NCBI RefSeq assembly: GCF_009696465.1
Contig: NZ_VULX01000009.1
Span: 37,537 to 101,536 of the forward strand
Length of the DNA stretch: 64,000 nucleotides
DNA from: Inconstantimicrobium porci
GTDB taxonomy: Bacteria; Bacillota; Clostridia; Clostridiales; Clostridiaceae
Direction: 5' to 3'
A model generated the notes under the pieces. That model made no database searches, was not told the DNA's origin, and saw only the letters and a list, made by a program, of their open reading frames with translations. A program made the position numbers and the translations under genes. Positions within the stretch are counted from its first letter, which is position 1. Every line of letters starts with the position of its first letter. Positions 4,465 to 64,000 of this stretch are shown in pieces.

Positions 4465-4857
4465 TGTCTTTCTTCCTTTCGCCGCATATTCCATAATCTA
4501 TTAAAAGTTCTCATTTATTTAACAACACCCATATTTATCTATAAATGTTTGTTAAATCTTCGCTTTAAACAAAATTATAACGCAATTACTAATGATTTGC
4601 AAATATTATTCGTAAGATTCAATTTATTTTTAGACAAAATTATTAATATTTTATTTTTGTACTACATTTTTTGATTAAATATTATTTCATAACATCTTGT
4701 AATCATTTTATTTAGGAACATTTTTATACTAATATGTTTTATTTTATTAAATAAAATCGAATTCACGAGAATATTGTTGTATTTATTTTAACAAATATAT
4801 CACTTTATTTTATGTTATAATTAATTATCAATATGCGTTTAAGGAAGTGTTTATATA

Positions 4858-5490
4858 ATGAATAAAAGTAATTTTAAAGGAAGTGTAATTTTAAACCCTG
4901 TACCAGTTGTTTTAATTGCTTCTAAAAATAAAGCTGGCAAAACTAATATCTTCACTGTTGCCTGGACTGGAACCATCTGTACAAAGCCACCTATGCTTTC
5001 TATATCTGTAAGACCAGAGCGTCTATCCTATGAATATATAAAAGAGACTATGGAATTTACAGTTAACATCCCACATTACGGCATTGTGAGAGAAACTGAC
5101 TTTTGCGGCGTAAAGTCTGGAAGAAATATAAATAAGATAGACGCGCTGGGCTTCACTATGAAAGATAGTGATAACATAAGTGTTCCTTATATAGATGAAT
5201 GCCCTATCAATATTGAATGTAAGGTGAAAGAAATAATTCCTTTAGGATCACATGATTTAATACTTGCAGAAGTATTAAGTTCACACATTAACGAAACCTT
5301 GATAGATGAAAAAGGTAAAATTCACTTTGAGAAAGCTAACCTTATAAATTACTGTCACGGTGAATATTATCCAATGAGCAAAAGTGCTATTGGTAAATTT
5401 GGTTTTTCAATTGCTAAGAATAAGGCCCGTATAAAGGAATATTCAAAGTATGAAAAAAACCTGAAAAACTTTATAAAGCACAATAATTAG
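4858..5490 (+). CDS. Flavin reductase-like (flavoredoxin / FMN-binding split-barrel) protein
   Basis: 210 aa. The VILNPVPVVLIASK..FTVAWTG..P.MLSISV pattern is typical of the flavin reductase-like domain. Good RBS. Confidence 0.55.
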   Translation: MNKSNFKGSVILNPVPVVLIASKNKAGKTNIFTVAWTGTICTKPPMLSISVRPERLSYEYIKETMEFTVNIPHYGIVRETDFCGVKSGRNINKIDALGFTMKDSDNISVPYIDECPINIECKVKEIIPLGSHDLILAEVLSSHINETLIDEKGKIHFEKANLINYCHGEYYPMSKSAIGKFGFSIAKNKARIKEYSKYEKNLKNFIKHNN

Positions 5491-5494
5491 TAAT

Positions 5495-5521
5495 AAAGAC
5501 TGCTTAACTTAAGCAGTCTTT
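5495..5521. terminator. Bidirectional terminator between the flavin reductase (+) and OppA paralog 2 (-)
   Basis: Hairpin aaagactgcttaa/cttaagcagtcttt flanked by an A-run and a T-run. Confidence 0.55.
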
Positions 5522-5551
5522 ATTTTATTCATTTAATCTTATCAGAAGGAA

Positions 5552-7261: not shown

Positions 7262-7738
7262 ATTTATTGCCCCCCTAAAATATTTATTTATATTTATGTT
7301 TTTAATATTTTACATTTTTTGAGGAATTTGTGTTTTCCTCCTGCTTTATTCAAATTATATATATTTATTAACAAGTTGTAAATATATTTCCTACACTTTT
7401 ATAGAAATTCTTCAATTTTTATTACTTTTTTAAAATAAAGTATATTTTTTTATCATTTGCTAAACGAAGAAATACTTTTATGTTGTTTGTAAACGTATAA
7501 TAAGATATTTCATTTTTAAATTAAAAAAAGAGGTTATTTTATGAATGTGTTAATTCTACGCTTTCAAAGCTATTATTGTAATAAATAATTACCTGTCAGC
7601 AAATCATTTTAATAATTGATAATTTGTTACTACTTTTTTACTCTTTCGATTTATTTTTTAATAATTTATAGTTATTATAATATGTACATTGTGATTTATA
7701 ATCTGATTATTAAATTATAGAAGTAATAAAAACGCCCC

Positions 7739-7756
7739 GATAAGCTGAAGCTTATC
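7739..7756 (-). terminator. Terminator downstream of OppA paralog 3
   Basis: Hairpin gataagct-gaa-gcttatc plus a GC-rich base and a U-run on the minus strand, just after the stop at 7781. Confidence 0.4.
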
Positions 7757-7780
7757 AAGGCATCTTTTATTTATATTGAT

Positions 7781-9505
7781 CTATTTTGTTTTTCCAGAGA
7801 TATAAACCTGAGATAAATCGTATTGACCACCAAACTTACTAAATGTAGATCCTTTAACATAATTCTTTCTGAATGAATTTATATCTGCATAATAACTTGG
7901 CATTATTCCAGCATCATCAGCAACAAGTATTTTTTCAGCTTCTTTATATAATTCAACTCTCTTTTTAGCATCTTCCTCTGATGCTGCCTTTTTAACAAGT
8001 TCATCATATTTAGGATTCTTATAGTGTCCATTGTTATTTGCACTGTCACTTAAGAAAACGCCGAAGAATGAACTTATATCATCATAATCTGGACCCCATC
8101 CACTAGATGCTATGTCAAAATCTCCTTCATTTAACAGTTTAAAGAATGTCTTACTATCAGGAGTAAATACCTGTTCAAGTTTTATACCAAAAGTATCCTT
8201 ATAAAGTTTCTCCATGTAATCACCTATAGCTGAAGTAGTAGAAGTCTTAGTTCCTAAAAGATCCTTTATAACTACCTTTGATGCATCTACGCCTTCTTCT
8301 TTAAGTCCTTCAGTCATAAGTTTCTTTGCTTCTTCAACATCATTCTTGATTGGTTCAGGAACTTCCTTTCTGTAAACACTACCGCTACAGTCAACTCCAT
8401 CAGTTATAAGACCATAAGCAGGAATCATTCTCTTATAAACAACGTCAAGGTATTCTTGTCTGTTTATTGCTAAAGATAATGCTTTTCTTACCTTTGCATT
8501 CTTTAATATTCCTTTTGTAACATTAAAGTATTCATAATAAGATGTAGTGTCTTTTCCATGGATATATGTTATTTCACCATTCTTAGCTTTTTCTTTAAGC
8601 CTTGCAAGATTATCTTTTGATGCTCCTGTTAAATCAAGTTCTCCAGTTTCAAACATCTTAACAAGAGTATTTGATTCATCTATGATAAATCCATTAGCAG
8701 TTTCAAGTTTGATATTCTTAGCATTCCAATACTTGGTGTTTTTCTTATATACTATCTTTGAACCTTTCTGATAATCTGATATTGTAAATGGTCCATTGTA
8801 CACAACAGTGTTAATATCAGCTCCGTACTTATCTCCAGCAGCCTTTACTTTATCTTCTCTTACTGGTACAAGGCCCTTAAATGTCATTGCATTTAAAAAA
8901 TATGGTGTTGGTTTTGCAAGCTTAACTTCAAAAGTATAATCATCTTTAGCTTCAACACCTAACTTCTCTACAAGAGCATCAGTTGTTGCTTTATCCTTTT
9001 TAGCTGTTGCTGCATCAATTATTTCCTGCGCTCCTTTAACATTTAATTCTGCCAGTATTGTCATATAAGGAGCAGCTGTTGTTGGATTTATTAATCTCTT
9101 CCATGCATACACATAATCTTTTGCTGTTACAGGTTTATCATCTGTCCATTTAGCATCTTTTCTTAAATGGAATGTATATGTCAATTTATCACTGCTGACA
9201 TCTACCTTTTCAGCTCCAGCGTTAACTATCTTTGTATTTCCCTTTATATCTGTCTGTTCTCTCATAAGTCCTTCAAATACCTGATTCATACTTGTAAAAC
9301 TTTCTGCATCACTTACTTTAGCTGGATCAAGAGAAGTATAATCATAGCCAACTAAATTTAAAGTCTGATCTTTATCCGGCTTTGTATCAGCTGTCTTTTC
9401 AGTTGAAGTTTCTTTTTTTTCTTCAGTACTACCACATCCTGCAAACACCATTGTACTTACTGTTGTAGCTGCTAAAAATAAAGCTACTAGTTTTTTCTTA
9501 TTCAT
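7781..9505 (-). CDS. Peptide ABC transporter substrate-binding lipoprotein (SBP family 5), paralog 3
   Basis: 574 aa with lipobox FAGCGST. Homologous to paralogs 1 and 2. Confidence 0.8.
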   Translation of the reverse strand: MNKKKLVALFLAATTVSTMVFAGCGSTEEKKETSTEKTADTKPDKDQTLNLVGYDYTSLDPAKVSDAESFTSMNQVFEGLMREQTDIKGNTKIVNAGAEKVDVSSDKLTYTFHLRKDAKWTDDKPVTAKDYVYAWKRLINPTTAAPYMTILAELNVKGAQEIIDAATAKKDKATTDALVEKLGVEAKDDYTFEVKLAKPTPYFLNAMTFKGLVPVREDKVKAAGDKYGADINTVVYNGPFTISDYQKGSKIVYKKNTKYWNAKNIKLETANGFIIDESNTLVKMFETGELDLTGASKDNLARLKEKAKNGEITYIHGKDTTSYYEYFNVTKGILKNAKVRKALSLAINRQEYLDVVYKRMIPAYGLITDGVDCSGSVYRKEVPEPIKNDVEEAKKLMTEGLKEEGVDASKVVIKDLLGTKTSTTSAIGDYMEKLYKDTFGIKLEQVFTPDSKTFFKLLNEGDFDIASSGWGPDYDDISSFFGVFLSDSANNNGHYKNPKYDELVKKAASEEDAKKRVELYKEAEKILVADDAGIMPSYYADINSFRKNYVKGSTFSKFGGQYDLSQVYISGKTK

Positions 9506-28266: not shown

Positions 28267-30258
28267 TTACTCAGTTTTAAATTTTTCTATATTTACTTTT
28301 AATTCATCTACTATACGTGAAATATTATCAGCAGATTCACTAACATTCTGCACTACAATTATCTGATTTTCAGATGATGCAGTAACTTCTTCAGCCACAG
28401 CTGCATTTTCTTCTGAACTGCTTGCTAAAGTTTCTATGAGTTTTAGTAGTTCTTCGCTGAAATTCTTAATAAAATCAATAAGTTTATTAAATGATTTAAT
28501 GTTATCTGCAATCTTATTATCTACATTAGCAATTGAATTAAATATTTCTAAAGTATCATTTACTGTAGATGCTTGAAGCTTCATACCATCATTAACAGTA
28601 TTCATTAAATTTGTTGTTTTTTCCGCTTTAACTTTAATATTATTTAGAATCTCTGATATTTGCTTTGTGGCCTCCTGTGACTGATTTGCAAGTTTTCCTA
28701 CTTCTTCTGCAACAACTGCAAATCCCTTTCCACTTTCTCCTGCCCTTGCAGCTTCAATAGCAGCATTTAATGCTAACATACTTGTTTGATCTGCTATATC
28801 ACTTATTGTAGCTGTAATTCTATCTATATTACTTACAGATTCAGATAAATCTTTAACCTCATCTACTGTCTCCTCAACTATTTTATACTGAGCCTCAGTA
28901 TTATTCTTCAATTCTCTTGTTCCATTATTTCCATTAATAAGTGCTTCTTGAGAAATGCTTAAAGCATCGTTAATTTCACTCAATTCATTTGTCAATTCTT
29001 CCATTTTATCATCTAAATTTCTAACACTCTTTAATATATTATCTGATTTATCAGCTTGATGAACAGATCCTTCAGAAATCTCTTCCATAGCTTTTGCAAT
29101 ATCTTTACTAGTTTCTTCCGCTGATGATGATATTTCATTTAAAGCTATTGATGCATTCTTTAAATCATCACTTTTACTCTGTATGCTTAATACAAGATTC
29201 TTCAACGACATTACCATCTCATTAAAATCTTTTCCTATATTCACAATTTCAACGGAGCCTTTAACATTACATTCAGCAAATAAATTCCCTTCTGCAACAT
29301 CTTTACTTAAAGATGCCAAACTAGAAATTGGCTTTACAAAACGTTTTGAAACAAACAACGCAAACCATACTATTGCAACTATCATAATAATAGACAAGAT
29401 CACTGTTATTATAATAATCCCTAAAAACGCATTATAAATTTCTATTTGCGGAATGGTAGTTATGCTTCCCCATTTTAATGATGGTACAAAATTATATACT
29501 GCTACTTGAGCTGTACCATTATATTTAAACCTTACACTATTACAATTTCCCTGTATTGCTTTCTTTGCTGCTTCTGATAATTCGTCAGATCTACTAAAAA
29601 GGTTTTCTTTCATTATCTTACTTGAATCGTCATTATATGTTACATTGCCGTTAGCATCAAAAGTATATATCTTTCCTCTATCTGAATATAATATCTTACC
29701 AATATCCTGTTGTATGCCTTGCACTTTAACTTCATTTACAATATAACCAATAACATTATTATCTTTTTTTACTGGAGATGAAAACACAATTAAAGGAGTA
29801 TTTGTTTCTTTATCTAAAAATACGTTGCTTACATAAGAACAACCTCTTACAACATTATTAAAATAGTTCTTATCTTTAATACTTCCATTAATAGATCCCA
29901 TAGAATCTGTTATTATATTCCCATTTAAGTCTATATACATTATATTTACAATATCTAAGTCTTGAGATTGTCTATTTTTCAATTCAATTTTTATATTATC
30001 TATATCATTACTATGTAATACTCTAGAACTAGCAATGTCTTCAACTAAAAGTACTTGATCATCCCCCCACTTATCAATATTGTTAGTAGCCATACTTGAT
30101 ATCTGCTTAAGCGAACTAATCTGACTATCATACATAGATTTATTGACCACTATTGCTGTACTAACTGTCAAAATTATCAAAGGTATTATACCGATAATTA
30201 AAAAACTTAGTATCATTTGAAATTTTAAGCTTGTTTCTTTTCTTAAGTTACGTTTCAT
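28267..30258 (-). CDS. Methyl-accepting chemotaxis protein with a periplasmic dCache-type sensor
   Basis: TM, about 250-aa extracytoplasmic domain, TM, HAMP, then an MCP signalling domain (EELSASIEE...[18 protein letters not shown]). Confidence 0.85.
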
Positions 30259-51450: not shown

Positions 51451-51641
51451 AAAATTAATTAAAGAGTAAAAGAGCATATTTCCATCACATGTATTATTAG
51501 TACACTTTAACCCACTATACCTGTTGAAATACATTTTTTGATGCACTTTCTACATAAAATATAACCATATATATATTTCACTTATATTAATAATATAGTT
51601 TTTTTCTTTTCTATTCGTTGTTCTCTGTTATCTATTCACTA

Positions 51642-51675
51642 AAAAGACTCCGCATTAACTCTGCGGAGTCTTTTT
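51642..51675. terminator. Bidirectional terminator downstream of the CDF gene
   Basis: aaaagactccgcattaactctgcggagtctttt. Confidence 0.55.
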
Positions 51676-52576
51676 ATATAGCCCATTTCCTATCGCCTGT
51701 AAAATTGACGTTAAGCCATTTTTTCAGTTTTATATCAGTCATATTTCTATATACCTGCTCTCTGACCTCATCCATTTGTCCAAGTTCATTTAATGATGAT
51801 TGCTCATTAAACACAAAATCAATTTCTATTCTAAGTTCTCTTCCAATCTTGCTCACCCTTGTTATAGAGTCTGCAAAATTGTACTCTTTTTCTATATCCT
51901 TAACTATTGTGTATATCTCATTGTTTATATTATCATCAGCACTTCCACTTACTATTTCCCTAAAACTCTTAAATAATGCTGTAGTAGGTATTTTTATAAA
52001 TATTAATGATGATATTATTACCATGGTAGGGTCAACGTATCTAGTTAAACCAGCCAAGCTTGTCGTTGAAATCACTGCAGAAATTATGAATCCTATAAGG
52101 ACTGCAACACTTAAAATACTATCCATAAACCACTGATTGCTTTCAGCCTTTAATATATCTGAACATAATTTCTTACCCTTTTGATGCATATAAACATATA
52201 CGAAAATGCATCCTACTGAAGATACTATTGAATAAGCAACTGCCATACTAGTATCTACAACATGTCCACCTGCTACTATTTCTGTAACAGCATCATATAA
52301 TGTAAAAGTACACATTACTATAAGTACAATTGATTTGAATGCTACAGCTAAAGGCTCCAACATTACTTTTCCAAAGGGAAATCTCTTAAAGTCAGCTTTA
52401 TCTATATAATTCGTGACCCAAAGTGCAAGTATTGACAAAAATAAACTGATTAAAGAATATAGTCCGTCAAATAATATCATACTTGACTTAGCCATAAATC
52501 CCCAAGCTAGTCCCATAACAGCAAAAAATAATCCGCCAAGTGCTGAGAATTTTATCATCTTTTTTTCTAGTTTCAT
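51674..52576 (-). CDS. Cation diffusion facilitator (CDF) family metal efflux transporter
   Basis: 300 aa, 6 TM segments plus a C-terminal cytoplasmic domain. The N-terminal organisation matches CDF proteins. Confidence 0.7.
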   Translation of the reverse strand: MKLEKKMIKFSALGGLFFAVMGLAWGFMAKSSMILFDGLYSLISLFLSILALWVTNYIDKADFKRFPFGKVMLEPLAVAFKSIVLIVMCTFTLYDAVTEIVAGGHVVDTSMAVAYSIVSSVGCIFVYVYMHQKGKKLCSDILKAESNQWFMDSILSVAVLIGFIISAVISTTSLAGLTRYVDPTMVIISSLIFIKIPTTALFKSFREIVSGSADDNINNEIYTIVKDIEKEYNFADSITRVSKIGRELRIEIDFVFNEQSSLNELGQMDEVREQVYRNMTDIKLKKWLNVNFTGDRKWAI

Positions 52577-52813
52577 CTTGTCTCACCTCTTTCATTTCCT
52601 TTAACTTTATTATAAAATCATAAATTACTTATCTCAACTCACTAATATGATTGATTTTTAACATTTTTATTGGATTTTAAGCGTTCACTATTTTTCCCAA
52701 AAAGCACATTAGTACATTTTTATTTGCACATTGGTACAATTCAAACTACTTTTTTATAAAAAGGGTTACTAAAGAATGAATATGTATTGTACCTTTTTTG
52801 ATTTGAGCTGTAT

Positions 52814-52868
52814 ATCCTTTGTTTTCAACGCTTTACAGCATTTAAAATTCACCTTTTTCAATGCAATT
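52814..52868. repeat. Family-3 D-module repeat, copy 3
   Basis: atcctttgttttcaacgctttacagcatttaaaattcacctttttcaatgcaatt. Confidence 0.6.
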
Positions 52869-52943
52869 GGTCTAGGCATTAAAAAATTGATAAACCGAAG
52901 TCTATCAATTAGTTAAAAGTTTACGTGTTTTATTTATATTTTT

Positions 52944-52992
52944 AAGAGTAACTTGTTCTCTTACTTAGAAACTCCGTGAAGGAGTTTCATCC
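52944..52992. repeat. Family-1 hairpin repeat, partial copy (AAGAGtaacttgttCTCTT plus GAAACTCCgtgaaGGAGTTTCATCC)
   Basis: Same two modules as at 26168-26216. Confidence 0.6.
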
Positions 52993-53030
52993 TTTTCTCT
53001 GCTCTCTTCGTTTTAATCCCTAATCTATAA

Positions 53031-54008
53031 TTATTTTAGTACTACTGTTGCCACTATATAAAGTGCCACAATTATTGCCATCCATGGATTAATAAACAAC
53101 TTCCATGTATTTTCCTTTATGTTTTCTTGTGACTGTATTGTATTTTCTTCTATATCCACTTTTGCAAAAACTGGCTTTGATACATTTATATATTGTTTAT
53201 CTGTATAATACTTCATAGCCTTTAGAACAAGTACTATCAACGCTGTAGCAGCTATTGCTATTACTCCAATTATAGATATAGCATCAAGCCTCTGTGCAAT
53301 TGTTATTTTTGCAGCTTCTTTAACAGCCTCCTTATGAAGTGCTTCATTACCAGGTGCAAATACTAAAAATTTAGCTAGAGCAACCTGAATACCATTAATA
53401 GTCATATGACATACCATAGTAACAAATATTGAACCAGTTATCCTGACCATTATTGCAAAAAGAAACCCTAGTGCAAATGCATACAAAAACTGTGATAAAT
53501 TAAAGTGGAAAATTGCAAACAAAAGTCCGTTTACAGTTGCTGCAACAAACATATTTTTATCTTTAAAACCATGAAGTACAACTCCACGCATAGTAATTTC
53601 TTCTGTTATTGCTGGTGTGATAGCCATAGCAAAAAACATAGCAAAAAAGCTTAAAGGTGTAACCTGTTCCATAAATGCTCCTACAGTATCTGTTACAAAT
53701 AACTGTGATATATTTGCTAAAAAACTCATTATAGGCTGTGCCAACATTCCAATAAGTACAGCGAACATAATATTTATTAAAGGTGTCTTCTTAAAGCTTA
53801 ATGTTTCTTTAAATGATTGTGAATTTAATAGAATAAAAATCACTGCACACGGTACGAATGTTAAGAAATGCACAGCAGAATTAGCAAGACCAATGTTCAT
53901 TTTATAGTGATTATATAAATATGTAAAAATCATTGGTGATATAAACATCTGTACTAAGCTGACAACAATAAAATACAGATATACTTTAGTAGTTTCTTTA
54001 ATTTTCAT
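53031..54008 (-). CDS. CPBP-family intramembrane metalloprotease (CAAX protease / Abi-type)
   Basis: Motifs EEITMRG (EExxxR), FAIFHFN (FxxxH) and HMTINGI, in a polytopic membrane protein. Confidence 0.8.
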   Translation of the reverse strand: MKIKETTKVYLYFIVVSLVQMFISPMIFTYLYNHYKMNIGLANSAVHFLTFVPCAVIFILLNSQSFKETLSFKKTPLINIMFAVLIGMLAQPIMSFLANISQLFVTDTVGAFMEQVTPLSFFAMFFAMAITPAITEEITMRGVVLHGFKDKNMFVAATVNGLLFAIFHFNLSQFLYAFALGFLFAIMVRITGSIFVTMVCHMTINGIQVALAKFLVFAPGNEALHKEAVKEAAKITIAQRLDAISIIGVIAIAATALIVLVLKAMKYYTDKQYINVSKPVFAKVDIEENTIQSQENIKENTWKLFINPWMAIIVALYIVATVVLK

Positions 54009-54246
54009 AATATTTAACTCCTATATATTTTTCATATTTTTTGCATAATTTTATTTCTACTGTTAATAATACTAATGTAACTATTTATTTAATATGCCTC
54101 TCCCCCATTTTTATATAACTTTTATTAATCCTCTTATAGATAATATTCTATAAGAGGATTTTATCTTTTTGAGTTGCATATTAAATATACTCTTTTATTT
54201 TACTATATTATGAAGCTAAATACACTTTTATTTATACTAATCCTAT

Positions 54247-56256
54247 TTATTCTGTCTTAAATTTATTGACCATCCCTAATAAATGCTGTGACTTATCTTT
54301 ATTCTTTTCTAAATATTCAACAATATCATCCTTTTTACAATTAATACTTGTCATATTTTCTGCAATATGTAATGATGATTTAGATACAGAAGATATTGCT
54401 TCTGTTAACTCTTCAATATTTGAAGAAACATTATTTATAGAATCATATATTTCTTTAGATACTCCTGACACCTCTGTCATTACATTTTTAAAGTTATCAC
54501 CACTTTTTTTATAAGAAGATGTAATATCAATAAGCTTTTCATAATCATTTAAGATATCTTTTTCTACTACATTAAGTAATTCTGATGATGTTTCTGAAAG
54601 TTCTTTAACCGCTAATAATGTTTCGTTAACATTATCCTGTATAGCATTGACAGTTGATGCAGACTGCTCAGCAAGCTTTCTTACTTCCTCAGCAACTACT
54701 GCAAATCCTTTACCCTGTTCACCTGCTCTTGCGGCTTCTATAGATGCATTAAGAGACAATAAATTTGTTTGCTGAGATATCTCAAGGATACTATTAGACA
54801 TAGATGATATATTCTCAACAACCGCAATCTTTTCAAGTGCTCTTTTTAATTTAATGCTACAACTATTATATAAACTTTCAACATTCTGTTTAGATAATAT
54901 AGCATCATTATATGCTACATCCGATTCTTGTTGTATGTCGCCAGCTAACTTAAGAACCTTAACTGCAGTATCTGCTGACTTTTCTGCACTCTTATTTATT
55001 GTATGTGAAATTGAATTTGCCTCTTCTAAAGATGCAGTGCATTGCTCCATATTAGCTGAAATTTCTTCTGTTTCTGCTGCTGAACTCTCTAATTCGCTAG
55101 AAATATCAATAATCATTTCGTTTATTTTTTCACTACTTTTAGAAATTTCATTACTGTTCATCTTAACCTGATTGATAGCTGAACATAACTCATTTACTCC
55201 TGAGTTTAAATCTTGAATTGTTTCTGCAAACTCATTATCACCTATTTTTTCCCCCTTATATGCAAGGTTATATGAAGATAATTCTGTTGAGTAATTTCGT
55301 ATATTCTTAATTTCTCTTAATAGTATTCTTCCTATTACTACTGATGTAAGTGCACCTATAACTACAAATATCACAGTTGTAATAAACTGATCTAACGCTA
55401 TTCGATTAATACCACTCATTACTTCTTTATTAGGTGCAATAAGACATATTGACCATGATGTACCTGCTATCCTTGTATGTGAAATTCGTACTTTTGAACC
55501 ATTTAACACTACATCTTCAACTTCTGTCTTATCAGAAATAAGTTTTGATAAAATGTTATTCACTTCATTTTCTTTATCTTTATTTTTCCCCGCAAAGTTA
55601 TCAACAAATTTAGTTTCAGTTAAAACTAAATTCATATCCTTATGCGCCACAAATCTTCCAGTACTATCAAGAATAAATCCATATCCTGACTGTCCTATTT
55701 TTATAGACTGAACAATTTTATTTACTTCATCAAGTTTAATTGTTCCACAAAGATATCCAACCACCTTGTCATCCCTATTAATTGGTGTAACAATTGTTGT
55801 TATAGATTCCTTTTCTATCTGCTTTATAAATGGGTCAGTAACAAACTCTCCCTCTGCCTTCATCTTCTTAAAGAAATCTTCCTGCGACTGGTCTTTAGGT
55901 TCTTCATTTCCTATGTAATATCCAAATCCATCCGCAGACATGATAAAGAGTCCATTGAATCCCCACTTTTCATTTTCATCAATAAGTACCTGCTTTTGTG
56001 CATTCCAATCCATTGACTTTATTTCATCTATTTTAGCTATATATCTAAGTTGTTCTTTCCTTTTTTCAAAGTATGCATCTACTACAGTTGCCATATCTTT
56101 TGTTCTTTCAGTCAGTTCTTCAAATGTGATACCAAGAATATTAGCTTTTGACCTACTATAAGATATAAATGACAATATGTTACACATAATAAAAACTAAT
56201 AAGGTTATTTGAATAATAATTCTTCTTGCAATTCCAATCTTTAGCTTTTGTTTCAT
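54247..56256 (-). CDS. Methyl-accepting chemotaxis protein with a Cache-type sensor (paralog A)
   Basis: TM, Cache-like extracytoplasmic domain, TM, then an MCP signalling domain. About 65% identical overall to the MCP at 60386..62395, with 100% identical stretches. Confidence 0.85.
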
Positions 56257-56408
56257 ATATTCTTTCCACCTTTCCCAAAAAATAAAAACCCTAATAGTTT
56301 TATTCGTAACTATTAGGATTTTTATTTAGTAATTTTTCTCTTTTTTTAAATATGTTAAATATTCAACAGAATTTTTGGGATATATTCAAAGGAATTTGTC
56401 TTTTCCCA

Positions 56409-58319
56409 TCATACACGCACTATTTTTTTGAACATTCTCGAAGAAAATACTGCACTTATAAAAAATACTACTACTGAAACAATTACACTTATTACAAATG
56501 TTTTTGTCAAATCTATACTTATAATATTTCCTAAAGCACCAATAGCAAAATAACTATGAACAAGTCCGACCATTACAGGAATTAAATAAAACATTGTAAC
56601 TTCTTTATTTATTGATCTGCCAATTTCTTTCGTAGAAGTTCCTATGTTTTTAAGTACCTTATACTTAATCTTATCTTCATTTGCATCACCGTAAATCTTA
56701 ATATAAATAATACTTGCTTCTGCAAGTATGAAAACTAAAAACAAGAATGCCATCATTGCATAAATAACTTTGAGCCATGCTATCCTATCAGTTTTATATA
56801 TGCCACACGTAATTGCTACCTGTTTTACATTCACAAACTTTGACATACCAGTCACTAATTTATCCATAACCTTTTTATCAAGAAGCTTACTGTCATTTTC
56901 GATTTTAATTCCCAGGAAATTATTTTTTTCACCATACTTCTCAATCTTTTTATAATTCTCATTACTTACAATAAGAGTCTGATTATTAAATGCACATCCT
57001 ATTACAGGAAGCTTCATATCATCTTTTCCCTTTTGAAATATGTTATCACCTATAACTATAGTACTTTTATTTACCAAACTTCCAAGAGTCATAGGTCTGG
57101 GTATATAAACCACATTATTGCCAGAAATCATATCACTAGTAACCTTACTTATGCTGTCTTGATGATTATTTCTTCGCAAAATATCTGCAAACTGATCATA
57201 AGAAAGCACTATAAAATCTTCCTTTTCAGTTCTGAAACTATTCTTTTCAGTCACGTTAACTTTAAGTACTGAGTCATTCACAGAATATTTTACTTTTCCA
57301 ATACCGCTAAATAACTCCTTAATCTTTTCCTGGTTTTTAATCTCTTCATTTGAAGTAAAGGTTAAAGAATATAATTCATTGTTTTCTGCCTGTTTTTCAT
57401 AAAGAGTCTTCATTGAAACTGCTGCACCAAGTACAGTAATAGTACATGCTGTGAATATTGCTATTGTTGCGTATGTGGTGAAGTTCTTCCTCATCCTATA
57501 AAACAGATTGTTTATTGTTATTATATTTTCACCTTTATAAAGAATTGATTTTCTATTTATAAGGAAATTAAATATTACAGACAGTACTGTTCCAAACAAG
57601 CCATAAGTACCAATACATACAATTATAAGCGTCCTTAAAGCTTTTGTTTTATCATTACTTATCATATAATAACCGTATATTACAAAAAATAACGAAACTG
57701 CTGCAATTAAGTATGTGTAGAACCTTACCTTTACAGGCTCATCTCCTTTTTTATTATCTTTTAAAAGATCTATTACACTACTTCTAAGTATATTTATAAA
57801 TCCCTTAAGAGCCATAATAATAAATATTATTAGAAATGTTGCTACAGTATACATAATTGAATCTGCTGTTATATTAAATTTTATATCTATATTGAAATCT
57901 GCCATTTTAAACACTATCATTTGAAAGAATTTTGAAAACAAAACTCCAATTCCTGTTCCAATAGCACATGAACTTAATCCTATCAACATCATTTCTGTAA
58001 AATATATTCTTCCTACAGTAAATGAATCAAGTCCCATAAATGTGTAAATACCTATTTCTTTCTTTCTGTTTTTAAGGAATATATTTGATGAATACCATAT
58101 GAAGAAAAGCATAAATAAAGTCAGCATAATAATCAATATCTGTAAAGTCATCTTTGAATATTCTTTATTCATTTTACCTAAATAATCAAGAGTGTTACCT
58201 TTCAAAAGTATCATAAAGTTACTCAGTATAACTACTGAAAATATCATTGATATAAAGAACATAGTATATATCTTTATATTATTTTTAAAATTGTTATAGG
58301 CTATTCTCAACACACTCAT
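56409..58319 (-). CDS. FtsX-domain ABC transporter permease, BceB-type (10 TM with a large extracellular loop)
   Basis: The start was set at MSVLRIAYNNFKNN (the ATG overlaps the upstream ATPase stop). About 636 aa. Confidence 0.75.
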   Translation of the reverse strand: MSVLRIAYNNFKNNIKIYTMFFISMIFSVVILSNFMILLKGNTLDYLGKMNKEYSKMTLQILIIMLTLFMLFFIWYSSNIFLKNRKKEIGIYTFMGLDSFTVGRIYFTEMMLIGLSSCAIGTGIGVLFSKFFQMIVFKMADFNIDIKFNITADSIMYTVATFLIIFIIMALKGFINILRSSVIDLLKDNKKGDEPVKVRFYTYLIAAVSLFFVIYGYYMISNDKTKALRTLIIVCIGTYGLFGTVLSVIFNFLINRKSILYKGENIITINNLFYRMRKNFTTYATIAIFTACTITVLGAAVSMKTLYEKQAENNELYSLTFTSNEEIKNQEKIKELFSGIGKVKYSVNDSVLKVNVTEKNSFRTEKEDFIVLSYDQFADILRRNNHQDSISKVTSDMISGNNVVYIPRPMTLGSLVNKSTIVIGDNIFQKGKDDMKLPVIGCAFNNQTLIVSNENYKKIEKYGEKNNFLGIKIENDSKLLDKKVMDKLVTGMSKFVNVKQVAITCGIYKTDRIAWLKVIYAMMAFLFLVFILAEASIIYIKIYGDANEDKIKYKVLKNIGTSTKEIGRSINKEVTMFYLIPVMVGLVHSYFAIGALGNIISIDLTKTFVISVIVSVVVFFISAVFSSRMFKKIVRV

Positions 58320-59074
58320 TATCTGGCACCTCCCATTGATGCCAAAAGATCTAATATCCTGCTGTAGAACTCTTTTCTGCTGTTTCCTTTCTCTATATGA
58401 CATTTTATCTCACCATCTGTAAGCATATATACCTTATCACTATAGCTTGCACTAATAGCATCATGTGTAACCATAATTATTGTTGCATTTTCTTCCTTAT
58501 TAGCTCTTGTCATACATTCAAGAAGATCTGATGATGACCTTGTATCCAGTGCTCCAGTTGGTTCATCTGCAAAAATAACCTTTGGTTTTGTAATAAGTGC
58601 TCTTGCTGCTGAACCTCTCTGCTGCTGTCCTCCTGAAAGTTCATACGGATACTTTTTAAGATGATCTGAGAGTCCAAATAACTCAGCCATCTGCTTTACC
58701 TTATCTTCGATATCCTTTGTCTTTTTTCTTCCAAGGGCCAAAGGAAGAGCTATATTATCCATCAGCTTCATATTATCAAGCAGGTTGTAATCCTGAAAAA
58801 TAAATCCTATGTTATCCCTTCTTATTTTTGAAAGTTCCTTATTTTTTACCTTCGTTATATCAACACCATCTAAAAGGATTGTACCTTTAGTTGGTTTATC
58901 AAGAGTTGATACAAGATTCAAAAGAGTACTTTTTCCCGCTCCTGAAGGTCCCATTATGGAAATAAACTCTCCTTCATTTACAGTTAATGATACATCTCTT
59001 AAAACTTTATTTTTAAAACCTTTTATGCCATATTCCTTGCATACACCATCTAATTTCAATATTTCTTTCATCAT
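58319..59074 (-). CDS. ABC transporter ATP-binding protein, BceA-type
   Basis: GPSGAGKST, LSGGQQQRGSAARAL, IFADEPTGALD. Start at MKEILKL after GGAGG. Confidence 0.85.
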   Translation of the reverse strand: MMKEILKLDGVCKEYGIKGFKNKVLRDVSLTVNEGEFISIMGPSGAGKSTLLNLVSTLDKPTKGTILLDGVDITKVKNKELSKIRRDNIGFIFQDYNLLDNMKLMDNIALPLALGRKKTKDIEDKVKQMAELFGLSDHLKKYPYELSGGQQQRGSAARALITKPKVIFADEPTGALDTRSSSDLLECMTRANKEENATIIMVTHDAISASYSDKVYMLTDGEIKCHIEKGNSRKEFYSRILDLLASMGGAR

Positions 59075-59200
59075 AAATACCTCCAATATAATAACTAAAT
59101 ATTTTTCAAAGGACCTTATGATTTAATTTTAGTATCTTTTATATTGACTTTCCTTCGTTTAACATTACTTTTAAATATTTAAAGTTACATTTATGTCACA

Positions 59201-60235
59201 TTAGATTCTTACCTTCAAATAATCAGCTACTTTATAAAACCTTATTATGAATCTAGTATAACTTCCCTTTACGGACTGCACTGACATCTCATGTTCAAGT
59301 TTTTTAATTATATTACTAGAAAAATATAACCCCATTCCTGTAGACTTATAAACGGTATTTCGTCCATTGATACCTGTAAATCCCTTTTCAAATACTCTGT
59401 CTAAATCTTGCTCTGCTATGCCTATACCATTATCTTCAATAATAAGTTCAATATATTTTTCACTTTCATTACCTCTAAATTCAAGTGTATTTTTCTCCTT
59501 ATTTTTATCCACATATTTGATAGAATTATTCACAAGCTGATCAAGTATATACAGTATCCATTTCTTATCTGTGTATATATCATAATCAACATTCTCAATT
59601 TGTATATCTATATTGTTCTTAATAAGCATAAACGCATTGCTCTTTATGCACTGTTTCACAACATCACTTAAGTTTTCCTGCTTTAAGAATATATCTTCAG
59701 CAGAAGCTGTGGACCTGCTACCATACATAACTGAGTTCACAAGGAAATTCATCTTCTCAACTTCTATTTTTATCCTTTCTTCCATCTCTGCATCATCAAT
59801 TGACTCAAGAATCAAATTAAGTGCACTGATAGGAATCTTAATTTCATGTACCCATTTTGAAATGTATTCCTCCATATCCTTTACTCTCTTAATGCTGTCT
59901 CTTACTGCTTCATCATACTTTTCATCATCCTGTTTGATAATACTTTTAATAATTGCAGTTTCAGCATCATCCTCATTATCTGGCATGTCATAATTACTTT
60001 TTAACATATTATATAACTCAAAGTACTTCTTGCTCCATTTCTTATAATCAAGAAATATTCCTAATGTATATATCAAAATAATTAAAACATTAAGATAAAC
60101 CAAATCACCTATATTGGCTCTTATAGCATTTAATGAAATCATATATGTATTTATTATTACTGTTACAAAAAAATAGAGTATTAAAAAACAAATTCTATCC
60201 TTTATAAATCTCTTGATATTCTTCATACCATACAT
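59201..60235 (-). CDS. Intramembrane-sensing sensor histidine kinase (BceS-like)
   Basis: Two N-terminal TM helices with almost no extracellular loop, H-box HEIKIPISAL, and a C-terminal HATPase domain. Confidence 0.8.
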   Translation of the reverse strand: MYGMKNIKRFIKDRICFLILYFFVTVIINTYMISLNAIRANIGDLVYLNVLIILIYTLGIFLDYKKWSKKYFELYNMLKSNYDMPDNEDDAETAIIKSIIKQDDEKYDEAVRDSIKRVKDMEEYISKWVHEIKIPISALNLILESIDDAEMEERIKIEVEKMNFLVNSVMYGSRSTASAEDIFLKQENLSDVVKQCIKSNAFMLIKNNIDIQIENVDYDIYTDKKWILYILDQLVNNSIKYVDKNKEKNTLEFRGNESEKYIELIIEDNGIGIAEQDLDRVFEKGFTGINGRNTVYKSTGMGLYFSSNIIKKLEHEMSVQSVKGSYTRFIIRFYKVADYLKVRI

Positions 60236-60385
60236 AACATACCTTTCTTTAAATTATTATTTACCACACAAATATTTTACCATAATATAGTTTTTTTAGT
60301 GTTTTTATATCTAAAATATTCTCTTGCATAAAAAAACTGCTACATAATGAAGTACGACACCTCATTATGTAACAGTTTTTACATT

Positions 60386-62395
60386 TTAATCTTCTGTCTT
60401 AAATCTATTAACTCTCTCTAATAAATCTTGTGACTTACATTTATTATCTTCAGCTGATTCCATTACGTCATTTTTCCTGCTATTGATACTTGTCATATTT
60501 TCAGCAATACTAAATGATGATTTTGATACAGAAGTTATTGCATCTGTTAATTCTTCTATATTTGCCGAAACATTACTCATAGAATCTGCTATTTCTTTTG
60601 ATGATTCTGAGAAATCCTCCATGATTCCCTTAAAGTTATCTCCGCTTTCTTTATAAGATAAAGTTATCTCAATAAGCTTTTCATAATCATTTAATATATC
60701 ATTTTCTACTACAGAAAGTAATTCTGACGATGTCTCTGAAAGTTCCCTTACTGCTTCTAATGTATCAGTAACACTATCCTGAATAGCATTAACAGTTGAT
60801 GCAGACTGCTCAGCAAGCTTTCTTACTTCCTCAGCAACTACTGCAAATCCCTTTCCTTGTTCTCCTGCTCTAGCTGCTTCTATTGAAGCGTTAAGTGAAA
60901 GAAGATTTGTCTGCTGTGATATATCAAGTATACTGTTAGACATAGATGATATATTTTCAACTACAGTTATCTTTTCAAGAGCATTTTTCAATTTGTTACT
61001 ACATCTACTAAATGCATTTTCTACATTTTTTCTTGATGATATAGCATCATAATATGCCTCTTGTGCTTCATGTTGTATTTTATCTACAAATTCAAGAGTA
61101 TTACTTGCCTTATTTGATGAAATTTCTGCATTTTGGTTAATTATTTGAGAAATAGAATTTACTTCTTCTATAGTTGCAGTACATTGTTGCATATTTGCTG
61201 ATATCTCTTCTGTTTCTGCTGCTGCAAGTTCAAGTTTATCTGACATATCAATAAGCATTTGATTAATACTATCACTGCTTTCTGATATATTATCACTATT
61301 GTTTTTAACTTTTCTTATAGCTGAACATAATTCTCCAACTCCCGAATTCAAATCATTAATTGTTTGTCCGAATTCGTTATTTCCAAGAACTTCACCTTTA
61401 TATGCTAAATTATATGATTGTAATTCTTTTGAATACTTTCTTATATTATTTATTTCCTTTATTAAATCTTTAGCAATTAATATTGATACAGCAACACCTA
61501 TAGCAACAAATATTATTGCAAAAATAAGCTGTGTAAATGCTAACTTATTAACGCCACCTAAAACTTCTTTATTTTTTGCTACAAGACATATTGACCAAGG
61601 TGTACCTTCAACCTTAGTATATGAAAGTACTAATTTTTCTCTATTAACTTTAAGTTCATCAATACTTGTTTGTCCCGAACTTATTTTACTAAATAAATCA
61701 TTTACTGCTGCTTCATCTTTTTTATCTGTACTAAGGCCTTCACTAAGTGTAGTTTCATTAAACACTAAGTTCATATCTTTATGAGCAACAAACTTACCTT
61801 CAGCATTGATCATAAAACCATATCCTGATTTTCCGTTTTTTATAGATTGAACAGTTTTATTTATATCATCTAGTTTAATTACTCCACATAAGTAACCTAC
61901 TGTTTCATTACCGTTTTTAATTGGCGTAACAATTGTTGTTATAGATTCTTTTTCTTCTTTTCTAATATAAGGTTCTGTTATAAACTCACCTTTTTCCTGC
62001 ATCGTCATAAAGAATTCTTCTTTAGATTGATCTAAAACTTCTGTTTTATCAGGATAATATCCAAACCCCTTTGGTGTAAGAACAAATAAATTATCGTATC
62101 CCCATTTATTTTTCTCTTCTATAAGTCTTGGCTTCTGTATATTCCAATCCATAGACTTTATTTCATCTATAGTTGCAATATATCTAAGTTCTTTTTTTCT
62201 ATCATTTAATTCAATCTCAACAATCCTTGAACTATCCTTTGTTTTTTCTGCTAAATTTTCAAAAGTTATATCTAATATATTAGAACTTGAACTATTGTAA
62301 GATAAAAATGATAATATTCCAGAAACGCATAATACTAATACTATTATCTGAAATCTAATCTTGTTTGCAATACTACGCACTGATCTTTTCTTCAT
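60386..62395 (-). CDS. Methyl-accepting chemotaxis protein with a Cache-type sensor (paralog B), located between the RR and HK genes
   Basis: Same architecture as 54247..56256. Identical DNA blocks include gcagactgctcagcaagctttcttacttcctcagcaactactgcaaatcc. Confidence 0.85.
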
Positions 62396-62613
62396 AAATA
62401 ATATCTCTCTCCTTTTCCAAAAATAAAATAACCTAATAATTATTTCGTAACTAGCAAGTCATTTCTTAGACAATTATCTATTTATTTTTTATTTATTTTT
62501 GCATCATATTAAATACCAGCTAGTATTTTTTACATATATTTACAAAAGACCACACGTAATTGTATCTTAATTTCCTTAAAGTAAAAATACACCACAAAAT
62601 TTCTTAATCTTCA

Positions 62614-63282
62614 TCACACCATATAACCTATACCTTTTTTAGTTTTTATAAAATCCTTTAGTCCCATATCCTTTAGCTTGCTTCTAAGCCTCGTTATATT
62701 TACTGTCAATGTATTGTCATTGACAAACTCATCATCATTCCATAGACTCATCATTATTTTGTCTCTAGAAACAACCTTTCCTTTATTCTTTATAAGAATT
62801 CTCAATATCTTTATCTCATTCTTTGTAAGGTCTGTAGTCCTATTATCGTACATCAATGTGCACTTTTCTGTATCAAGAACTGCTCCATTATAGTACACAA
62901 GCGAATCACCTGCTACATAATCGTAAGCCCTTCTTAAAAGTGCATTTATTTTTGTAACAAGAACTTCCACTGAAAATGGCTTAGTTATATAATCATCAGC
63001 ACCATTATTTATCCCCATAATTATGTCCATATTTGAATCACGAGATGAAAGTAACAAAATTGGCACCTTAGAAATATCTCTTATTTTCTTACACCAGAAA
63101 AAACCATCAAAGAATGGCAGATTAATATCCATAATCACAAGCTGAGGCTTTTTTTCAACATATTCTTCTAAAATACCATCAAATTTCTCACATATAAATG
63201 TGTTAAATCCCCACTTATTAAGTGATGAACTAAGTTCACCTGCTAAATCTCTGTCGTCTTCAACTATATATATACTCTTCAT
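62614..63282 (-). CDS. OmpR-family response regulator (BceR-like)
   Basis: Receiver domain (DD..D...K) plus a winged-helix trans_reg_C domain. Confidence 0.85.
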   Translation of the reverse strand: MKSIYIVEDDRDLAGELSSSLNKWGFNTFICEKFDGILEEYVEKKPQLVIMDINLPFFDGFFWCKKIRDISKVPILLLSSRDSNMDIIMGINNGADDYITKPFSVEVLVTKINALLRRAYDYVAGDSLVYYNGAVLDTEKCTLMYDNRTTDLTKNEIKILRILIKNKGKVVSRDKIMMSLWNDDEFVNDNTLTVNITRLRSKLKDMGLKDFIKTKKGIGYMV

Positions 63283-63510
63283 GAAACTGCTCCTTTTATT
63301 GATAACTTATTATTAACTCATATTTAAAACCCTTTTTCCTTCTTTTATAATTATACTATATTTCCTCCGCTGTAAATTAAACACACAAAAAGGGGCTGTC
63401 GCACAACTAATTAGAAATTAGTTGTGTAGCGGCTCTTTTTTTCGTGCAAAAAAATAAATCCCAAACTCAAAGAGAATGGGATTTATGGTAAAATATAAAT
63501 ATGACCAAAT

Positions 63511-64000
63511 ACAGTATTTTACACAAATGGAGCTAGAATATAAATAGTACAAGTTAAAAGTGGATATTTCTCAAAAAGAGTTATAATAAAAATATGATGA
63601 ATTGGAGGAATTGAAATGAGTAAACAGTATGATAAGGAATTTAAGGAAAATGCAGTGAGATACTATAATGAACATGAAGATTTAAATCTAAAAAGATGTG
63701 CTACTAATTTAGGTATTGCTGCTTCGACTCTTGGTGATTGGGTTAAAAAGGCAGATATTAATAATGGTGAAGTACCAACTAGAGGATCAGGAAACTATTC
63801 AAGTGATGAAGCAAAAGAAAATGCAAAATTAAGAAAAGAATTAAAAGATACGAAAGATGCCCTTGAAATATTAAAAAAAGCCATAAGCATTCTGGGAAAA
63901 TGACACAAGCTATATTTATCGAAACTGCGAAAGCAGAAGATCTAGCAGTTAAAGATAAGAAACGCCGACTTAATGTCAGCGGAGTGCTTAGAATATTAGG
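63511..64000 (+). mobile_element. IS3-family insertion sequence (partial; continues beyond the window). The left boundary is approximate
   Basis: OrfA (63616..63903) has an HTH and leucine zipper. An A7G slippery motif (63874-63881) precedes the orfA stop, consistent with programmed -1 frameshifting into OrfB. Confidence 0.7.
63616..63903 (+). CDS. IS3-family transposase OrfA (HTH)
   Basis: MSKQYDKEFKENAVRYY...LGIAASTLGDWVKK, followed by a heptad-leucine region. Confidence 0.8.
   Translation: MSKQYDKEFKENAVRYYNEHEDLNLKRCATNLGIAASTLGDWVKKADINNGEVPTRGSGNYSSDEAKENAKLRKELKDTKDALEILKKAISILGK

Follow-up and report, generated by a model that had tools for sequence, protein, structure and literature searches.

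Inconstantimicrobium porci is a pig-gut bacterium in which the response regulator (RR) and histidine kinase (HK) genes of a Bce-type peptide-antibiotic module are separated by 2.4 kb of DNA that includes a chemoreceptor gene and a strong terminator, and the locus raises the question of how such a pair came to be split and whether the two chemoreceptor genes (MCP-A and MCP-B) beside it have become part of the module. Within the window, i.e. the whole 64 kb stretch of DNA that was analysed, the minus-strand order is RR, MCP-B, HK, ABC ATPase, BceB-type permease and MCP-A. The gene order and coordinates given in an earlier note on this DNA were confirmed, with all six reading frames on the minus strand and Pfam assignments that fit, except that the span 56409-59074 comprises two genes rather than one, an ATPase gene and a permease gene. 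The description of the MCP copies as direct repeats about 6.1 kb apart was likewise accurate (measured spacing 6139-6142 nt).

62614 to 63282, minus strand: BceR-like OmpR-family response regulator, 222 aa (Pfam Response_reg and Trans_reg_C)
60386 to 62395, minus strand: MCP-B, dCache_1 methyl-accepting chemotaxis protein, 669 aa, between RR and HK (Pfam dCache_1 and MCPsignal)
59201 to 60235, minus strand: BceS-like intramembrane-sensing histidine kinase (Pfam HATPase_c; PDB match to BceS)
59185 to 59198, minus strand: BceR-type inverted-repeat box TGACATAAATGTAA upstream of the ATPase gene (exact TNACA-N4-TGTAA match)
58319 to 59074, minus strand: BceA-like ABC ATPase, 251 aa (Pfam ABC_tran, E=4e-36)
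56409 to 58319, minus strand: BceB-like permease, 636 aa (two FtsX domains; PDB matches PsdB and BceB)
54247 to 56256, minus strand: MCP-A, dCache_1 chemoreceptor, 669 aa, between the permease and a CAAX/CPBP protease gene (Pfam dCache_1 and MCPsignal)

The same arrangement was found in more than 15 independently assembled I. porci contigs and metagenome-assembled genomes, on which ground misassembly was discounted, and the order RR-MCP-B-HK-ABC-MCP-A-CAAX is unbroken on contigs L046, L054, L056 and L048, which come from different samples and assemblers.

The earlier assignment of the module to the Bce type was borne out by Pfam, by PDB matches for the permease and HK, and by transmembrane (TM) topology. 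The permease has 10 TM segments by hydropathy, with a gap of ~218 aa between TM7 (285-303) and TM8 (522-540), and in the PDB its sequence matches only PsdB 9ugg (E=3e-44) and BceB 7tcg (E=2e-35). The best PDB match of the HK is BceS 8g3a_D over its full length (residues 7-333 against 2-322, E=6e-30), and its two TM segments, residues 10-28 and 37-55, flank a loop of ~8 residues; the ancestral HK start was probably M4 at 60226, the residue from which relatives align onward. The stop of the ATPase gene overlaps the permease ATG by 1 nt. The inverted repeat bound by regulators of this type reportedly has the consensus TNACA-N4-TGTAA, attributed to Dintner et al. in 2011; the box TGACATAAATGTAA, ~110 nt before the ATPase start, fits that consensus exactly, as does only one other site in the 64 kb window, and it is kept, exactly or as a one-base variant, in 24 of the 27 orthologous loci inspected. 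Comparison with the sister species gave dN/dS values of 0.05 for the RR, 0.04 for the ATPase and 0.04-0.20 for the Bce genes overall, i.e. purifying selection.

The locus thus has the permease, coupled ATPase, intramembrane-sensing HK, OmpR-family RR and predicted RR box of a Bce module, while the adjacency of RR and HK in one operon, which is usual and not strictly required, is absent here because MCP-B and a terminator intervene. Judged from its sequence, the four-gene set is a canonical, standard BceRS-BceAB module for peptide-antibiotic sensing and detoxification. It resembles BceRS-BceAB of Bacillus subtilis and PsdRS-AB in having an FtsX-type permease whose TM7 and TM8 are separated by a large extracellular domain, in its coupled ATPase, BceS-like kinase and OmpR-type regulator, and in the inverted-repeat box before the transporter genes, but differs in that the normally overlapping RR and HK are separated and a second chemoreceptor paralogue follows the permease. 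From published work on such systems (PMC9169098, PMC7038271, PMC10858260), the module would be expected to work by a kinase that responds to transporter activity and a regulator that switches on the transporter, which in turn shields the antibiotic's target. The species description of I. porci lists a predicted bacitracin ABC transporter (PMC7738495).

RR directly adjoins HK in 37 of 38 orthologous loci of other Clostridia, counting only those loci in which both genes were visible, and base-by-base reading of 26 junctions showed the stop of RR overlapping the start of HK in 25. The loci of Clostridium (C. subterminale, C. perfringens, C. tertium and others) and of the syntenic sister species L042 contain the same four genes and the same promoter box (identities of 65-88% for RR, 45-69% for HK, 72-93% for the ATPase and 47-81% for the permease); unlike I. 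porci, they have no MCP within 10 kb, and the overlap of their RR with HK reads TAATG or ATGA. For the RR alone, identity to orthologous Clostridium Bce loci is 65-75%, and one comparison of the ATPase with orthologues gave 72-82%. More widely, no MCP was found within 10 kb in more than 35 orthologous Bce loci. L042, with the order GGDEF-RR|HK-ATP-PERM-CAAX-CDF-...-GSIII-PLD, lacks both MCPs and additionally shares the flanking CAAX, CDF, GSIII and PLD genes with I. porci. The interruption reported in the earlier note is therefore real and derived; the uninterrupted RR-HK-ABC arrangement that it suggested looking for in relatives was found, and RR-MCP-HK is not the ancestral order. The rearrangement is common to a second species, represented by L041, L047 and L048, together with orthologous relics at its junctions.

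62576 to 62614, minus strand: HK 5'-end relic, a dead 12-codon reading frame (MKIKKFCGVFLL and stop) whose ATG overlaps the RR stop as TGATG
62410 to 62549, minus strand: copy of the permease-to-MCP-A spacer, with a decayed permease terminator and an MCP ribosome-binding site (local alignment)
60334 to 60378, minus strand: intrinsic terminator after MCP-B, 20-bp stem and T run (terminator scan; -28.7 kcal/mol)
60274 to 60295, minus strand: candidate HK promoter, invariant block AAAAACTATATTATGGTAAAAT with extended -10-like TGGTAAAAT (conservation)
60227 to 60265, minus strand: RR 3'-end relic directly upstream of the live HK (alignment to the RR end)
56290 to 56317, minus strand: permease terminator, minus-strand fold of -18.7 kcal/mol followed by a T run (the scan lists the palindrome on the plus strand)

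These relics mark both junctions. Directly after the RR, the first 18 nt of the dead HK start (ATGAAGATTAAGAAATTT) agree with the L042 HK start (ATGAATATCAAGAAGTTT) at 15 of 18 positions, occupy the exact position of the HK start in 25 of 26 other loci, and are also present in the sister species L041. Between this relic and MCP-B, positions 62410-62549 align locally with 56268-56393 at a score of 60, whereas none of 500 shuffles scored above 34, and the decayed terminator copy within them folds at -12.5 kcal/mol as against -18.7 for the original. The original permease terminator, after which the MCP-A ribosome-binding site directly follows, has a homologue in the MCP-less L042 and is ancestral. 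On the other side of MCP-B, the RR relic together with the HK start aligned to the real RR end (p=0.006); the relic is better preserved in L041, where it matches the L042 RR 3' end over 43 nt at ~88% identity (p=0.001), and the junction GTGTGATG is still kept in L046. The dead HK start and the dead RR end testify directly to an RR|HK junction that once existed.

The overlapping RR and HK of a standard Bce module were probably split by a local segmental rearrangement rather than by a mobile element. The ancestral order would have been RR|HK-ATPase-permease-terminator-MCP-CAAX, the MCP being a lineage-specific arrival downstream of the permease and MCP-A the parental copy. A tandem duplication beginning within the RR gene, ~45-60 nt short of its 3' end, and ending a little beyond the MCP, then a deletion of the upstream HK-ATPase-permease copy, would yield the present order: RR followed by the dead HK start and the copied permease spacer, then MCP-B and the dead RR 3' end, and lastly the live HK, ATPase, permease and MCP-A; the succession of the two steps is that which we infer. 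Tandem duplication with subsequent partial deletion is one of the general ways in which bacterial gene order changes, and the locus has its hallmarks, with paralogous direct repeats bracketing a retained unit and short broken-gene relics at both novel junctions. It is unlike a typical case in that the outcome separates a translationally coupled two-component pair and inactivates neither gene. Carriage of MCP-B by a mobile element was considered and rejected, as there are no transposase, integrase or terminal repeats at its borders, and both borders are copies of local DNA; no inverted repeats were found in 52000-64000, and the window has no transposase gene between RR and HK.

A less probable explanation, which we regard as doubtful, is a single duplicative insertion in which a copy of the permease 3' spacer, MCP and possibly the terminator was pasted into the first HK codons by illegitimate or replication-based recombination, with at least 61 nt of target (RR 3' end and HK start) duplicated in the same event so that both genes stayed intact. 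The final structure would be equal to that of the two-step model, and a two-copy HK-ABC intermediate, the absence of which counts against that model, was searched for and not found. Likewise, a single insertion needs no homology downstream of MCP-B and MCP-A, and none is seen: the ~100 nt from the MCP-B stop to the RR relic, including the strong terminator, showed no detectable homology downstream of MCP-A (p ~0.9), which means either that filler DNA was added at the junction or that the hairpin was later lost beside MCP-A. Against this explanation, MCP-B has no flanking transposase, integrase or terminal repeats, target duplications of at least 60 nt are to our knowledge not typical of any known insertion mechanism, and duplication followed by deletion needs only common events.

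Under the favoured history of duplication and deletion, the RR would keep its own promoter and MCP-B would ride behind it, past the decayed terminator copy. HK, translationally uncoupled from RR and behind the terminator that follows MCP-B, the stem of which is conserved in the sister species, would be read from a new promoter in the spacer or by read-through. The block AAAAACTATATTATGGTAAAAT is the candidate for such a promoter, as it is the same in four sequences, drawn from two species, whose surrounding spacer is variable. Phosphorylated RR would still induce the transporter through the conserved box that precedes the ATPase gene, as in BceRSAB of Bacillus subtilis. The chemoreceptors would be passengers. 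They share 62% identity, have probably traded one ~60 nt tract through gene conversion, and some strains are losing them piece by piece.

The earlier note had raised the possibility that the two-component system and the chemoreceptors are co-regulated, and the evidence speaks against it. No BceR-type box lies upstream of either MCP, while the box before the ATPase is intact; a terminator stands before MCP-A and a strong one after MCP-B; and MCP-B is broken in several natural strains in which the Bce genes stay intact. The natural MCP-B alleles in I. porci include a 387-nt 5' deletion, a frameshift and an 84-aa deletion of the signalling tip; the gene has been inactivated at least twice independently, and MCP-A of the sister species has an in-frame deletion of ~95 aa in the dCache domain. 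Where intact, MCP-B appears to be still constrained and may have some use, given its between-species dN/dS of 0.25 (0.14 for MCP-A).

It is accordingly improbable that selection favoured the gene order for coupling chemoreceptor expression to the Bce module, through read-through into MCP-A or co-expression of MCP-B with RR, an integration that would link peptide-antibiotic stress to chemotactic behaviour. The maintenance of the order in two species and many strains and the dN/dS values of both MCPs are in keeping with such integration, as is the motile, swarming habit of I. porci (PMC7738495). So is the sister species, in which the permease terminator is missing and MCP-A begins ~45 nt after the permease, a spacing that would allow co-transcription with the inducible transporter. 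Opposed to this are the missing boxes, the terminators of -18.7 kcal/mol (permease/MCP-A) and -28.7 kcal/mol (MCP-B/HK), the three kinds of disabling MCP-B lesion, the dCache deletion in the sister species, the lack of nearby MCPs at orthologous loci, and the unrelated contexts of MCP homologues in other species, the closest of which are not beside Bce genes. The narrower proposal that the chemoreceptors are wired to the resistance module, with MCP-A, terminator-less in the sister species, transcribed by read-through from the BceR-induced transporter operon, is very unlikely. If it were true, exposure to peptide antibiotics would remodel the chemoreceptor array of this anaerobe and bias movement, e.g. 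away from bacteriocin producers, and the separation of RR and HK would also have reset the RR:HK ratio; the locus would gain much in importance only on proof that the module regulates the chemoreceptors. That RR-MCP-HK is ancestral with MCP loss in the other lineages, or is a misassembly across the MCP repeat, is scarcely credible, since the relics and the outgroups indicate a former RR|HK junction and one-piece contigs span the whole arrangement, even though metagenome contigs often break inside MCP genes.

The locus is best taken as a canonical Bce module carrying a rearrangement that is lineage-specific and probably near-neutral; the split appears to be tolerated and does not amount to a new system. 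It offers a natural example of a coupled two-component pair pulled apart by duplication and deletion with both genes retained, its reconstruction supported by molecular fossils at both junctions and by an empty-site relative, and a natural test of how far Bce signalling tolerates uncoupled RR and HK expression. No such RR/HK split for a Bce module was found reported in the searchable literature, and annotation pipelines that seek adjacent bceRS genes would label the I. porci RR an orphan.

The repeated MCPs had also been proposed as a substrate for excision or duplication of the HK-ABC block, for which no support was found: the deletion product, RR-hybrid MCP-CAAX, occurred in 0 of ~25 I. porci and sister-species contigs, and the copies share only 72% DNA identity and a single 59-nt identical stretch. 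The repeat is better understood as a scar left by the segmental duplication behind the arrangement than as material for rearrangements to come. The identity of about 65% stated previously was not reproduced (62% protein, 72% DNA), and of the identical blocks of about 50 bp only one long block held up, the next longest being 26, 23 and 20 nt.

60792 to 60850, minus strand: putative donor copy of the conversion tract in MCP-B (identity to the MCP-A tract; triplet test)
54650 to 54708, minus strand: putative gene-conversion tract in MCP-A (59/59 nt identical to MCP-B 60792-60850)

Gene conversion, as suggested from these blocks, was upheld for this single short tract; elsewhere the paralogues diverge independently. 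Inside the tract MCP-A has 0 differences from MCP-B and 10 from its own orthologue, and in a triplet test 12 of 12 informative sites were B-like (permutation p=0.005), so that conversion from MCP-B to MCP-A is likely. Both copies match MCPsignal (E=3e-26 for MCP-A, E=5e-29 for MCP-B) and dCache_1 (E=1e-25 and E=4e-19), and the 26-residue motif of the signalling hairpin tip is the same in the two. TM1 (~residues 9-31) and TM2 (~290-313) enclose a periplasmic domain of ~260 aa (MCP-B). Neither gave a Pfam match to HAMP at E<=0.001, with room after TM2 for a divergent one; another MCP in the window, at 28267-30258, does carry HAMP. IS elements near the locus (window 63392-64000; L048) are later and strain-specific.

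The locus holds a Bce module of canonical kind whose gene order is a lineage-specific variant that arose by segmental duplication. The six minus-strand reading frames described in the earlier note were borne out, with matching coordinates and agreeing Pfam-type domains, and comprise four Bce-like genes and two chemoreceptor genes (MCP-A and MCP-B).

Features of the locus, in window coordinates
63392-64000, cut at the window end: IS3-family element, with an HTH_Tnp_1 orfA at 63616-63903 (plus strand)
62614-63282, minus strand: BceR-like gene (RR), Response_reg and Trans_reg_C domains
60386-62395, minus strand: MCP-B, dCache_1 and MCPsignal domains, 669 aa
60334-60378: strong terminator after MCP-B, -28.7 kcal/mol
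59201-60235, minus strand: BceS-like kinase gene (HK), HATPase_c domain
59185-59198: inverted-repeat box TGACATAAATGTAA in the HK-to-ATPase spacer, an exact consensus match
58319-59074, minus strand: BceA-like ABC ATPase
58212: breakpoint in the mosaic identity to the sister species, within 56409-63391
56409-58319, minus strand: BceB-like, FtsX-type permease, 636 aa as called in other assemblies
54247-56256, minus strand: MCP-A, dCache_1 and MCPsignal domains, 669 aa

The permease start and the ATPase stop share 1 nt. Among PDB sequences the permease matched only PsdB (9ugg, E=3e-44) and BceB (7tcg, E=2e-35), and its hydropathy profile has 10 TM segments, TM7 and TM8 lying ~218 residues apart. 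The HK gave a full-length match to BceS (8g3a_D, E=6e-30) and has two N-terminal TM segments separated by a loop of ~8 residues. At the level of sequence, the locus is thereby identified as a Bce module of canonical type. Exact-sequence matching assigns the window to Inconstantimicrobium porci, and the RR sequence is on record for the 101.5 kb contig of isolate WCA-383-APC-5B alone. I. porci is a motile, swarming member of the Clostridiaceae from the pig gut, and its species description includes a predicted bacitracin ABC transporter (PMC7738495).

The ancestral order, which the earlier note had proposed looking for in relatives, was found in HK-based scans covering 24 genome loci (L011-L034), 11 metagenome loci (within L066-L080, counted only where RR and HK were both visible) and loci L042, L043 and L044. 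RR was followed directly by HK, ATPase and permease in 37 of these 38 loci outside the rearranged lineage; in the remaining one, L080, RR and the HK start alone were visible and were also adjacent. No MCP occurred within 10 kb in any of the 38, and the RR stop overlapped the HK start (TAATG or ATGA) in 25 of 26 junctions examined base by base. The most informative relative, L042, has the order GGDEF-RR-HK-ATP-PERM-CAAX-CDF-...-GSIII-PLD, in which the flanking genes of the window are present and both MCPs absent, at identities to the window of 88% for RR, 68% for HK, 93% for the ATPase, 81% for the permease, 82% for CAAX, 88% for CDF and 93% for GSIII. The same rearrangement, RR-MCP-B-HK-ATP-PERM-MCP-A-CAAX, was present in a second, sister species (L041, L047 and L048; the L041/L047 overlap is 99.8% identical), and MCP homologues of other taxa were 52-56% identical and lay in unrelated gene contexts. 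The closer relatives were obtained by protein search; scans of genome and metagenome contigs for intermediates or further species yielded only relatives with HK identity <=53%. The anatomy given in the earlier note was correct and the arrangement indeed non-canonical, the comparison indicating that the split between RR and HK is derived.

Dead remnants of both interrupted genes were recognized at the new junctions. The RR stop is followed at once by TGATGAAGATTAAGAAATTT, the ancestral overlapping HK start, which agrees with the L042 HK start ATGAATATCAAGAAGTTT at 15 of 18 positions, with the position fixed beforehand, and now opens a dead 12-codon reading frame. Just ahead of the live HK, the window retains a degenerate remnant of the RR 3' end (AAAGAAAGGTATGTTATGTATGGTATGAAG; p=0.006 with the HK start included); across 43 nt of the L042 RR end, the orthologous relic in L041 is ~88% identical (p=0.001), and the I. 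porci lineage of L046 retains GTGTGATG at this junction. The RR-to-MCP-B spacer (62410-62549, ~140 nt) is homologous to the permease-to-MCP-A spacer (56268-56393), with an alignment score of 60 where the null reached at most 34, and by comparison of folds contains a weakened copy of the permease terminator. Since L042 has the same terminator, it is ancestral at the permease 3' end; MCP-B is therefore derived and MCP-A parental.

The simplest history for the insertion of MCP-B is a tandem duplication followed by a deletion, in which a segment from ~45-60 nt inside the RR 3' end through just past the MCP would have been duplicated, and the first copy of HK, ATPase and permease then lost. A single duplicative insertion that also duplicated 61 nt or more of target DNA would yield the same final product, and the ~100 nt after the MCP-B stop, terminator included, lack homology to the DNA after MCP-A, which counts against the two-step route; overall, the single insertion was judged unlikely. 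Neither inverted repeats nor a transposase were found at the MCP-B borders. A permease 3'-end relic and a longer HK 5' relic were sought in the RR-to-MCP-B spacer, where resemblances visible by eye fell short of significance (p 0.08-0.96 against L042), and the end points of the deletion in the duplication-deletion history were located only to within about 20 nt. Promoter capture, in which the stretch from MCP-B to the RR relic would be a copy of the CAAX promoter region downstream of MCP-A, was rejected as unsupported, the match being only 14 of 16 nt (ATATTATGGTAAAATA against ATAATATAGTAAAATA, p ~0.9).

MCP-A and MCP-B differ from each other by a dS of 0.9-1.1, much as the permease, MCP-A and CAAX genes differ between the species (0.8-1.0), so the duplication is roughly as old as the species split. 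From RR to the permease 5' end, I. porci and the sister species are ~90% identical, and beyond it ~79%; the between-species dS of MCP-B is only 0.235, against 0.93-1.04 for the permease and MCP-A. This mosaic suggests that the rearranged half was later moved between the two species by recombination. Values of dN/dS were 0.05 for RR, 0.04 for the ATPase, 0.12 for the permease, 0.20 for HK, 0.14 for MCP-A and 0.25 for MCP-B. HK was the fastest-evolving Bce gene: amino acid identity among the three species is 68-78% for HK and 93-96% for the ATPase. In DNA, the TM-coding part of HK (60006-60205) is only 72% identical to the sister species, with flanks of ~90%, and within I. porci the HK gene differs by 4.3% where adjoining CAAX and CDF are 100% identical.

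MCP-A and MCP-B have 62% protein and 72% DNA identity, and their description as direct repeats ~6.1 kb apart agrees with a measured offset of 6139-6142 nt. The earlier note had also reported identical blocks suggestive of gene conversion, for which a single long block of 59 nt was found (54650-54708 = 60792-60850), the next longest being 26, 23 and 20 nt. Within it, MCP-A of the window differs at 0 positions from MCP-B, 3 from the sister MCP-B and 10 from its own orthologue, and a triplet scan was MCP-B-like at 12 of 12 informative sites (columns 1551-1626, permutation p=0.005), with no other significant tract. As a caveat, no part of the protein is more conserved than this block, and, judged by K and S states common to the other three copies, two of the orthologue differences look like the orthologue's own changes. 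One short conversion from MCP-B to MCP-A is likely from these alignments; elsewhere the paralogues diverge independently, as favoured by four-taxon site patterns of 211 versus 14 and 7. Excision of the HK-ABC block through the MCP repeats, also proposed, found no support, as the expected RR-hybrid MCP-CAAX order was seen in no contig carrying RR or HK.

The box at 59185-59198 is one of two exact matches in the 64 kb to TNACA-N4-TGTAA, which we take to be the BceR-type consensus. It recurs at the same position, exactly or as a one-base variant, in 24 of 27 inspected orthologous loci, so the transporter promoter looks intact. No such box was found at <=1 mismatch in the spacers upstream of MCP-A, MCP-B or HK, and the suggested co-regulation of the TCS and the chemoreceptors is unsupported by the available genomes, with no comparable box before either MCP. 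RR would be read from its own promoter, with MCP-B behind it, past the decayed terminator copy. The terminator at 60334-60378 would isolate HK, which is likely served by a new promoter in the MCP-B-to-HK spacer; a candidate is the 22-nt block AAAAACTATATTATGGTAAAAT (60274-60295), invariant in four sequences from two species and containing the extended -10-like TGGTAAAAT. In Bacillus subtilis, transporter activity signals to the kinase, and the phosphorylated RR binds its box and induces the transporter (PMC9169098, PMC7038271, PMC10858260); the I. porci transporter would likewise signal to its kinase, with phosphorylated RR acting on the conserved box to induce it. A sigma-D-like promoter, considered for the loop of the hairpin that precedes the MCPs, matched the consensus poorly. 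Rfam returned nothing relevant on the spacers, the sole hit being a sub-threshold match to the Bacillus sRNA ncr1015 at 51638-51749 (minus strand; 36 bits, gathering score 60, E=0.04), which reaches into the CDF gene region at its 3' end and is probably due to chance.

Across natural variants the MCPs decay and the Bce genes stay intact. A 387-nt deletion (62172-62558), found in three I. porci samples (L046/L053, L057 and L054, the last with an additional frameshift), deprives MCP-B of its ribosome-binding site and first 75 codons, and an in-frame 252-nt deletion between imperfect VVEN-coding repeats, identical in L052 and L010, removes the whole MCP-B signalling tip; MCP-A of the sister species has a dCache deletion of ~95 aa. 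Four independent metagenome contigs (L004, L005, L007 and L009) all start at MCP-B gene position 1682 (about 60696-60714), exactly where the 252-nt deletion allele has its right-hand repeat, so full-length and deleted alleles may co-occur in these samples, splitting the assembly graph. The RR-to-MCP-B spacer is a repeated target of rearrangement. In four sister-species samples (L048 and L049-L051, absent from L041) it holds, on the opposite strand, a DDE_Tnp_1 IS element with a 527-aa transposase (L048 10721-12553), so MCP-B there is not co-transcribable with RR. The IS3-family element, in the window strain only, lies 109 nt upstream of the RR start, where it may influence the RR promoter; in its place, other I. 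porci contigs carry a FliB_C lysine-methylase gene, their homology to the window ending at 63391 or 63426. Directly downstream of the Bce locus in all three related species lies a CPBP/CAAX intramembrane protease gene (53031-54008, minus strand), with a conserved palindromic hairpin (54127-54160) in its upstream region; proteins of this type are often bacteriocin-immunity-like. A third, HAMP-bearing dCache MCP (28267-30258, minus strand) lies 30 kb away and three tandem SBP_bac_5 solute-binding paralogues of 568-574 aa (2788-9505, minus strand) stand at the window start, which marks the region as rich in paralogue families.
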